A stretch of DNA of 64,000 nt from an uncultured Synechococcus sp. (lineage in GTDB: Bacteria; Cyanobacteriota; Cyanobacteriia; PCC-6307; Cyanobiaceae). Shown piece by piece: positions 4,678 to 47,963 of the stretch. The notes beneath the pieces were generated by a model. It saw only the letters and a program-made list of their open reading frames with translations. It did not search any database and was not told where the DNA came from. How positions within the stretch are numbered: position 1 is the first letter of the stretch; each line of letters begins with the position of its first letter. Both the position numbers and the translations under genes were made by a program. The stretch is taken from assembly GCA_913048995.1 (NCBI GenBank), contig CAJWXK010000001.1, positions 8,230-72,229 on the forward strand. Direction: 5' to 3'.

Positions 4678-5302
4678 TCCTCTCTTGCTTCATAGCTCAA
4701 CCCCATGATCCCTTGCCGGCTCGTTTCGAGCCGTAACGCCAAGATCCTATTCTTGTCAATTTCTAATCAGTATCACTCGCCCTATTGTGTTGGTTCACAG
4801 CATTTGTGCTGCTCTATTTTTCTTTCTGGATATTCTTTGTGCTCGCTTAGTAGAGTGTTCGATGGCACATAGCAGGTGCATTCATGCATAAATAAAGCTG
4901 CGAATCCGTCACTCTCACCTTCGGAGCTAACTACAAGTTCGCGTTAGTGATCAGCAATCGAACAAGGCTATGGACATGACAGAAGCAGTCATTAAGTCAA
5001 TATTGAGGATCACTTGCGAGGCTGGCTTTGTTCCTCCCAAGGGGACGTGGGGCAGCTTGTTTTAAACCTATTAGAACCATTTTTAAGCATGAACAGTGCT
5101 TTTCCTTTTTTCAACAGAACTTTTGTGGCTAGTAAATAGATTTACTGCAAGTGCGCCAAGAAACTTGACACAGTTTGGCTTCGGCTCAGTGCACAATCCT
5201 GGGTGTGGAACCTGAACTGCGTGCCCGCAAACACAATCCAACCTGAAGATCAACGCTGCCCTGGTGGCCGGATGGTTGACGCAGGTGAGTCTGCGCAATG
5301 TC

Positions 5303-47027: not shown

Positions 47028-47444
47028 TCAGCTCTGTATGCGCTGCCCACTGATCCGCTCACAACGTTCAGAACAAAGCACCTCGAGATTCGCTCGACGA
47101 GTCAGTTGTAATCGCCGGTAAGCCCACCAGTTGTAAAGAGCATCAACGAGAACACTGATCACGGGCCATCGGGTTGGGGCATAAAGCCAACCGAATCCGA
47201 CGATGGCGTAGGCCTGACGGAACACCTCAACATTGGTAATGACTTCGCCGTCAGAGCGAATTGCATGCATACGACCCATGGCCTGGCGGTAGCTGATTCC
47301 TGCATGGCAATCAGGGTCGTATTCGTCTTCATCAATGTCTGTGAAGGCAATTAACCCCCTTCCAGCATCGAGTCTTCTGAGCGAGCGAACTTCCCGCAGA
47401 CAGAGCGGACAACCACCGTCGTATAGGAGCGTCAGCTCAGCCAC
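47028..47444 (-). CDS. DCC/DUF393 thiol-disulfide oxidoreductase family
   Basis: LLYDGGCPLC; GTG start at 47444 overlaps upstream small gene. Confidence 0.88.
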   Translation of the reverse strand: MAELTLLYDGGCPLCLREVRSLRRLDAGRGLIAFTDIDEDEYDPDCHAGISYRQAMGRMHAIRSDGEVITNVEVFRQAYAIVGFGWLYAPTRWPVISVLVDALYNWWAYRRLQLTRRANLEVLCSERCERISGQRIQS

Positions 47445-47628
47445 CGAAGCTGTCCTTAGGCTTGAGGTTGAGCAGCTCAGCGCCGTAGGCCTCACTCATA
47501 GAAACCTGCAGTTGCCAGATGCGCAGCAGGGATTTAGCCATGTCTCGCAGCTCAAGCAAGTCCTCGCAGCGGTCGATGGCACGCTCATGCATGGTGACCG
47601 TGAACTCTCTGTTGAGGGGGAGAGGCAT
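47437..47628 (-). CDS. NblA-like small helical protein (candidate phycobilisome degradation adaptor)
   Basis: 63 aa; PLPLNREF resembles NblA L-S-L-E-Q-x-F, then two amphipathic helices; HLR1-like site upstream. Confidence 0.55.
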   Translation of the reverse strand: MPLPLNREFTVTMHERAIDRCEDLLELRDMAKSLLRIWQLQVSMSEAYGAELLNLKPKDSFGG

Positions 47629-47641
47629 GTGGATAAATCTC

Positions 47642-47659
47642 TTTTCAAAAGTTTACAAA
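47642..47659. promoter_or_regulatory. HLR1 (RpaB-binding) direct repeat
   Basis: TTTTCAAA-AG-TTTACAAA vs KTTACAWW-N2-KTTACAWW, one mismatch. Confidence 0.6.
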
Positions 47660-47963
47660 GAGTCGATGAGCGTTGTGTGTGCATCGTGCCTGCCTGGTCG
47701 CTCGCTTGATGCGGCCTCAATCCTGGCGTGGGCTGTGAGGCGCCTTCTTAACTCATCTTCAGACCATGGTTGTGCTCAAATCATTGGCCCGCCATTAGAT
47801 AACAGCGGCAATCGGCAGCTTGACCGGTTCCTAGGGCACGGTGAGGCTTGTGATCCGCCTGAAGCCCGTGGAGAAAGACTCAGGTGAACCCTTTGATAGT
47901 TTTCGCGCTGAGGATCAGCTTAAGAAAGGCTGCGCGTAGTTTGGAAATGACGACGCCCTCTCG

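Follow-up and report, generated by a model that had tools for sequence, protein, structure and literature searches.

Does a 63-residue open reading frame on a Synechococcus contig encode a divergent member of the NblA family, and is it wired to the high-light regulator RpaB? The frame, here called ORF63 (P0001), occupies positions 47437..47628, stop codon included, on the minus strand of the window, by which we mean the whole 64,000-nucleotide stretch of DNA analysed. The source genome (G000) is a MAG of 1.8 Mb, 82% complete and with 59.8% GC. An earlier, sequence-only reading of the stretch had called the frame a cryptic NblA-like gene with an HLR1 site at its promoter. Both elements are where it placed them: the minus strand translates to exactly the residues it gave, and an HLR1-type direct repeat (TTTTCAAAAGTTTACAAA) is found at 47642-47659, 14-31 nt 5' of the ATG at 47628. 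Marine Synechococcus was long believed to be without nblA. In November 2025, however, several nblA genes, too divergent for general profiles, were reported to be typical of a marine Synechococcus genome, along with one in low-light Prochlorococcus (PMC12695635, Nature).

Is the frame a gene at all? ORF63 is a genuine conserved gene and no chance frame, because its orthologues (seven close ones, at 68-97% identity) can be aligned while the flanking intergenic DNA cannot. Its amino-acid sequence is kept across many genera. A profile search of 1.84 billion cluster representatives returned 34 matches, and orthologues are present at E <= 1e-12 in 69 of the 131 genomes of the same (picocyanobacterial) family; 62 of these 69 carry a match at E <= 1e-25. 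The public sources that name ORF63 all have it as 'hypothetical protein', the closest named source being the MAG Synechococcus sp. MED-G71, and a better annotation is possible.

Is the protein related to NblA? Searches of Pfam, NCBIfam and PDB sequences with the ORF63 protein or its profile gave no NblA match, and none to PF04485 appeared even at E 10 (the Pfam gathering threshold is 25 bits). Two of 50 family members do match PF04485, both below threshold. Profile-profile comparison reaches further. The ORF63 subfamily (alignment A3, 31 sequences) matches an alignment of paralogues, some of them from small low-GC genomes (A4, 19 sequences), with 99.1% probability, E 6e-19 and 58 columns. Compared with canonical NblA from 23 other cyanobacteria (A2), A3 alone is not significant (0.9% probability) and A4 reaches 86.8% probability and E 4e-6, but over just 24 N-terminal columns. 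The merged profile of the picocyanobacterial NblA-like family (A5) gives 65% probability and E 6e-5 over 56 columns by hhalign. The canonical core reads L-S-L-E-Q-x-F ... Q-V..M-S..Q-A-Q.F-L ... Y ... W-G. In that alignment ORF63 has the same residue in 6 of the 20 invariant A2 columns (L, L, F, A, L, Q) and departs from the core at E-Q, M-S, Y and W-G, while it retains the N-terminal pattern L-x-L-x-x-x-F. The subfamily has a motif of its own, RAIDxCxD..ELR..AK.LL.AWQLQ, unlike the canonical NblA core, and a C-terminal motif of its own, SE.YGA.LLG. The loop residue Cys21 is conserved in at least 90% of subfamily members.

The two families have complementary phyletic patterns. PF04485 was found in none of 5 picocyanobacterial genomes versus 65 of 76 other cyanobacteria, and the ORF63 family in 25 of 36 picocyanobacterial genomes versus none of 24 others. 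Relatives also occur in small low-GC, Prochlorococcus-like genomes. Up to four family loci per genome were located by genome search; G000 has three, on contigs C1 (ORF63 itself), C93 and C44.

How does this family relate to the published one? A qPCR primer for the host nblA2 of Synechococcus WH8109 (PMC12695635) has an exact site once among 401 genomes, in genome G276, where it falls within a 52-aa open reading frame. Profile A5 detects exactly six loci in G276, the nblA2 frame among them at E 4.7e-13, some of the loci being interrupted by stop codons. Because six loci, nblA2 included, are found in the very genome that bears the primer site, the picocyanobacterial family of ORF63 is, judged by profile, the published WH8109 NblA family. 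A primer match in the window's own genus was discarded as spurious, as it has 3 mismatches and lies inside a 391-aa frame. As a separate observation, a second NblA-like frame, of 57 aa, precedes the published nblA2 on the same strand at a distance of 35 nt (L065:1256-1623 in G276), a tandem arrangement reminiscent of the heterodimeric nblA1-nblA2 pair of Synechocystis.

ORF63 is, however, not simply one of the six. A maximum-likelihood tree sets the ORF63 type in a clade by itself (support 95/91) with none of the six G276 paralogues inside; the weak sister of the clade is a long-branch paralogue, and so few columns make the deep branching order untrustworthy. The ORF63 type turned up in none of 7 genomes of the genus to which G276 belongs, and several other genera have it in each genome sampled. 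What, then, is new? That marine Synechococcus harbours cryptic, divergent nblA-like genes is already known (PMC12695635). The cryptic character claimed for the gene was largely pre-empted by that paper. What may be new is that an HLR1 site goes with this particular branch, which was not found in the genus of the reference strain.

Members of the family might also travel with viruses. A siphovirus of Synechococcus CB0101, phage S-CBS4, has in gp072 (L085:1429-1809) the family motif ...RDFSLAVNKKAIEDCTDMQQLKE... in a protein labelled 'hypothetical protein'. The PHROG family phrog_27081, which has no annotation, matches the picocyanobacterial NblA-like family as a whole, with nblA2 at E 2.7e-5 and ORF63 at E 0.009, whereas canonical NblA matches phrog_23930. 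Some cyanophages may thus carry a divergent NblA of host type.

Does the predicted structure bear out the kinship? The AF2 model of ORF63, built from a 50-sequence alignment (pLDDT 84), consists of a helix at residues 5-20, a three-residue loop and a helix at 24-52. A canonical NblA modelled likewise has helices at 9-24 and 27-55, so that the helix lengths are 16 and 29 residues in both. Foldseek returned zero matches for the ORF63 model against the PDB. In an exhaustive VIA-align scan of 48,161 representative PDB chains, NblA structures rank high: 1ojh (PCC 7120) is first (Z 6.2, rmsd 2.3 A, 52 of 52 residues aligned), 2q8v (T. vulcanus) second (Z 5.7, rmsd 1.6 A, 51 aligned) and 3cs5 (S. elongatus) eighth (Z 4.8, rmsd 1.5 A, 48 aligned). 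Since the model of a bona fide NblA reaches just Z 6.7, 6.0 and 5.4 against these same chains, the modelled ORF63 monomer appears about as NblA-like as can be measured at such a size. A two-helix hairpin is nonetheless a simple and common fold, and a Z of about 6 may reflect the shared arrangement alone and is no proof of homology.

The modelling also points to a homodimer. The predicted ORF63 pair scores 0.49 versus 0.02 for the best control. Among 30 proteins solved as pairs 20 attained that mark, and among 23 solved as single chains 1 did. Contact agreement between runs is at least 96%, partner pLDDT is at least 74, and residues 21-22 fall within the predicted interface. ORF63 thus probably forms a homodimer, and a dimeric architecture is reported to be kept in the predicted structures of divergent NblAs (PMC12695635). 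How far, then, does the NblA-like identity hold? Transitive profile homology through the published picocyanobacterial family, joined by the A5 match to canonical NblA, the monomer fold and the predicted dimer, supports it. The direct routes failed: the Pfam NblA model, the Foldseek search of the PDB and the comparison of A3 alone with canonical NblA all came up empty, and fewer than a third of the invariant columns are shared.

The second part of the question concerns the promoter. The HLR1 consensus is KTTACAWW-N2-KTTACAWW, that is, (G/T)TTACA(T/A)(T/A)-N2-(G/T)TTACA(T/A)(T/A). The direct repeat upstream of ORF63, TTTTCAAA AG TTTACAAA, reads in this orientation on the plus strand (47642..47659), departs from the consensus by one mismatch and is a putative RpaB operator. 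With respect to the gene it is inverted, at -31..-14 from the ATG. It is the sole site with <=2 mismatches in the window, where 0.26 are expected. The window by itself is weak evidence, not decisive, because 23 of 100 shuffled windows yield at least one such site.

Stronger evidence comes from the rest of the genome and from orthologues. The whole 1.8 Mb holds just four sites with <=2 mismatches, of which that of ORF63 is the best; of the remaining three, one is found in front of an hli gene, one in front of an ftsH gene and one in front of a phycobilisome-linker gene. These three classes belong to the known RpaB regulon, as does nblA in model strains (PMC6525291, PMC4390884). Two of the sites deserve mention in their own right. 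The match at C50:3390 is 5' of an ftsH-like gene and that at C60:10830 about 170 nt 5' of a rod-linker-like gene, and the two promoters look like candidates for repression and activation by RpaB, respectively. The hli genes of G000 have HLR1-like sites 39-42 nt before their ATG. One of them (C44:10566-11092) carries the 2-mismatch version GTTACATCGCGTTACACT, the 18-mer lying at -40..-23 from the ATG; it stands tail-to-tail with an NblA-like paralogue (MAIDPIERSMEQSF...) that clusters with Prochlorococcus-type members and one WH8109-like paralogue (support 99/99).

When the upstream regions of three genomes of the genus are aligned, nothing can be matched apart from the block TTTGTAAnnTnTTGAnAAG, which is exactly the repeat. 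Across 14 orthologous loci (88,420 positions, both strands) there are five sites with <=2 mismatches, all at -31..-42 from the start codon. A further 20 orthologous loci from other genera add five more, mostly inverted and mostly 24-37 nt before the start, one of them a perfect HLR1 18-mer (TTTACATTACGTTACAAA). In total, 10 of 34 loci, from at least 6 genera, have such a site at -5 to -42, a range that includes locus L094 with its doubtful start call; nine are at -24 to -42. No other site with <=2 mismatches was found elsewhere in the stretches of these 34 loci. About two thirds of the orthologous loci have degenerate versions or none, and one subgroup of orthologues sits close behind an upstream gene. 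HLR1 was not found at the promoters of other paralogues; the C93 paralogue has just the first half-site, at the same distance. As the genome's best match, a conserved block and a motif that recurs at orthologues, the repeat claimed by the sequence-only reading is a real and conserved element.

Is it an operator, or could the repeat be a mere AT-rich core promoter, a -10 box plus start region, with ORF63 outside RpaB control? A plausible -10 hexamer, TAAACT (47650..47655, minus strand), is part of the half-site TGTAAACT; it is placed only by reading the sequence and its orthologues, which have TAACGT, TAAAAT or TAACAT at that position. The hexamer overlaps the promoter-distal half-site and the spacer. 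Many orthologues keep just CGTAAC or TGTAAC, and the lone half-site of the C93 paralogue and the frequency of sites in shuffled windows would fit the same explanation. Selection on a -10 box does not, however, readily account for a second half-site held in 10-bp register across several genera, once as a perfect 18-mer, nor for the fact that this is the best HLR1 match in 1.8 Mb. All <=2-mismatch sites of the orthologous loci, moreover, are at the same place, and the hli genes of G000 have their HLR1 about as far from the ATG. We regard a bare core promoter as unlikely. A half-site that includes a -10 hexamer is plausibly what is expected of an operator that occludes the core promoter, yet it leaves room for selection on the -10 box only.

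The orientation of the repeat raises another thought. Its consensus reads along the plus strand, and HLR1-controlled small RNAs such as PsrR1 exist (PMC6525291). Might the site serve a divergent plus-strand sRNA instead of ORF63, or ORF63 itself be a chance frame? The 335 intergenic nucleotides that separate ORF63 from the 2OG-Fe(II) oxygenase gene (47629..47963) gave no Rfam match, no consensus sigma-70 promoter, no plus-strand terminator and no conserved plus-strand feature. This DNA is unconserved beyond the site and spans no more than about 57 nt in relatives, and the ORF63 protein is conserved over many genera. The sRNA reading was dropped, and either form of this explanation is now barely tenable.

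With an operator as the preferred interpretation, in which direction would it act? RpaB itself is encoded in G000 (C83:2004-2771; NF045944 equivalog, 395.6 bits against a cut-off of 330). An HLR1 centred between -38 and +23 from the transcription start site is associated with low-light repression and high-light induction, and one centred between -66 and -45 with activation (PMC6525291). The nblA gene of S. elongatus is a reported RpaB/HLR1 target (PMC4390884). Because the ORF63 site is centred 22 nt before the ATG, it would lie outside the activating window; its position fits the repressing window for 5' UTRs of up to about 45 nt. RpaB is thus predicted to bind here, and the gene to be derepressed in high light or stress. 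No NtcA box (GTA-N8-TAC), the element through which nitrogen controls nblA in S. elongatus, was found near ORF63. Elsewhere the window is rich in such palindromes, six versus 1.44 expected, a number reached by none of 100 shuffles; these NtcA-type sites are at 5132, 20320, 28394, 34152, 35444 and 43252.

What surrounds the gene? Immediately downstream on the minus strand is a gene for a DCC1-like thiol-disulfide oxidoreductase (47028..47444; PF04134 at E 1e-26). Its start is placed by homology (M-A-E-L-T...) at the GTG at 47444, which overlaps the ORF63 stop by 8 nt (GTGGCTGA). In relatives the gene begins either with an ATG 1 nt after the ORF63-type stop or with the same GTG overlap. The longest frame, 47028-47495 on the minus strand, would begin with a GTG at 47495 and overlap ORF63 by 59 nt; automatic start calls for this gene are probably too long. 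Because its start overlaps the ORF63 stop, the oxidoreductase gene is probably co-transcribed and translationally coupled with ORF63. All 6 loci examined in the genus retain this pair, within the order rhomboid / 2OG-Fe(II) oxygenase / ORF63 / DCC1-like / cation-efflux transporter. Outside the genus no conserved neighbours were found, the genes there being for an ABC ATPase, MarC, a hydrolase, a restriction-modification methylase and a methyltransferase, so that the DCC link appears genus-specific.

How might these parts work together? We consider it somewhat better than an even chance that ORF63 represents a distinct, widespread branch of divergent NblA-like adaptors, repressed through HLR1 by RpaB and with photosynthetic proteins as likely targets, a function that is predicted. 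The protein would be a small helix-loop-helix, probably homodimeric. By analogy with NblA, which binds phycobiliprotein subunits and ClpC and causes bleaching, one surface might bind a target and another the ClpC chaperone, which would deliver the bound target to Clp proteolysis; phycobiliproteins or other photosynthetic proteins would be the likeliest targets, and degradation of the phycobilisome a possible role. In low or normal light, phosphorylated RpaB on an operator that overlaps the core promoter would silence the gene. High light or redox stress would lift this repression, and the coupled oxidoreductase gene would be derepressed together with ORF63. The proposal of a divergent NblA-like gene under HLR1/RpaB control is, at the computational level, largely borne out, with RpaB control a prediction.

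The target need not be the antenna, since relatives of ORF63 occur in Prochlorococcus-like genomes and nblA genes have been reported in phycobilisome-less Prochlorococcus (PMC12695635). Could ORF63, with the same family and fold, serve other targets as a small dimeric adaptor or regulator, or act as a heterodimer with a paralogue, perhaps with redox gating through Cys21? Besides the Prochlorococcus genes, phage-NblA-dependent cleavage of many non-antenna proteins (PMC12695635) and the departure of the subfamily motif from the canonical NblA core would speak for such a role, and Synechocystis NblA1 and NblA2 do act as a heterodimer (10.1101/494369). Redox gating would fit because ORF63 appears coupled to a gene for a thiol-disulfide oxidoreductase, whose start overlaps its stop; Cys21, moreover, is nearly invariant in the subfamily, and residues 21-22 are part of the predicted interface. 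Set against this, the DCC pairing is restricted to one genus, G000 has phycobiliprotein and linker genes, and in model strains RpaB is known to target nblA (PMC4390884). A role away from the antenna is possible but on the unlikely side, and an RpaB-repressed adaptor for photosynthetic proteins is the interpretation that we retain.

The host nblA copies of marine Synechococcus have hitherto had no assigned role or regulator. One widespread branch with an RpaB operator would offer a concrete candidate for host-driven, light-triggered trimming of antenna or proteome in the ocean. The boldest version, an RpaB-controlled branch specific to high light, redox-gated via the loop Cys (served by the DCC1-like protein in this genus) and handing to Clp targets beyond or besides phycobiliproteins, is a speculation to which we give little credence at present. 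If it held, marine picocyanobacteria would possess a light-triggered route, separate from the chlorosis that nutrients drive, for remodelling their antenna or their proteome more widely.

How does ORF63 compare with known systems? Canonical NblA (PF04485; 1OJH, 2Q8V, 3CS5) is of similar size, has the same 16 + 29 helices and superposes over the whole chain of the monomer; its functional form is a dimer in a four-helix arrangement, and a homodimer is predicted for ORF63. RpaB/HLR1 control, reported for S. elongatus nblA (PMC4390884), has its counterpart in the HLR1 site of ORF63. Unlike canonical NblA, ORF63 is without a Pfam match and an NtcA box, shares 6 of 20 invariant columns, and has a longer loop with a conserved Cys-x-Asp. 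With the HLR1/RpaB-repressed high-light genes (hli, PsrR1; PMC6525291) it has in common an 8-nt direct repeat with a 2-nt spacer close to the gene start, although at ORF63 the repeat runs opposite to the gene and the second half-site (TTTTCAAA) is weaker. A further comparison is with NblA1-6 of WH8109 (PMC12695635). By profile they form one family with ORF63, are of about 50-90 aa and undetectable by Pfam, and occur as several paralogues per genome, as do the three in the 82%-complete G000. Within that family ORF63 is set apart by a separate clade, a C-terminal motif of its own and an HLR1 site at its promoter.
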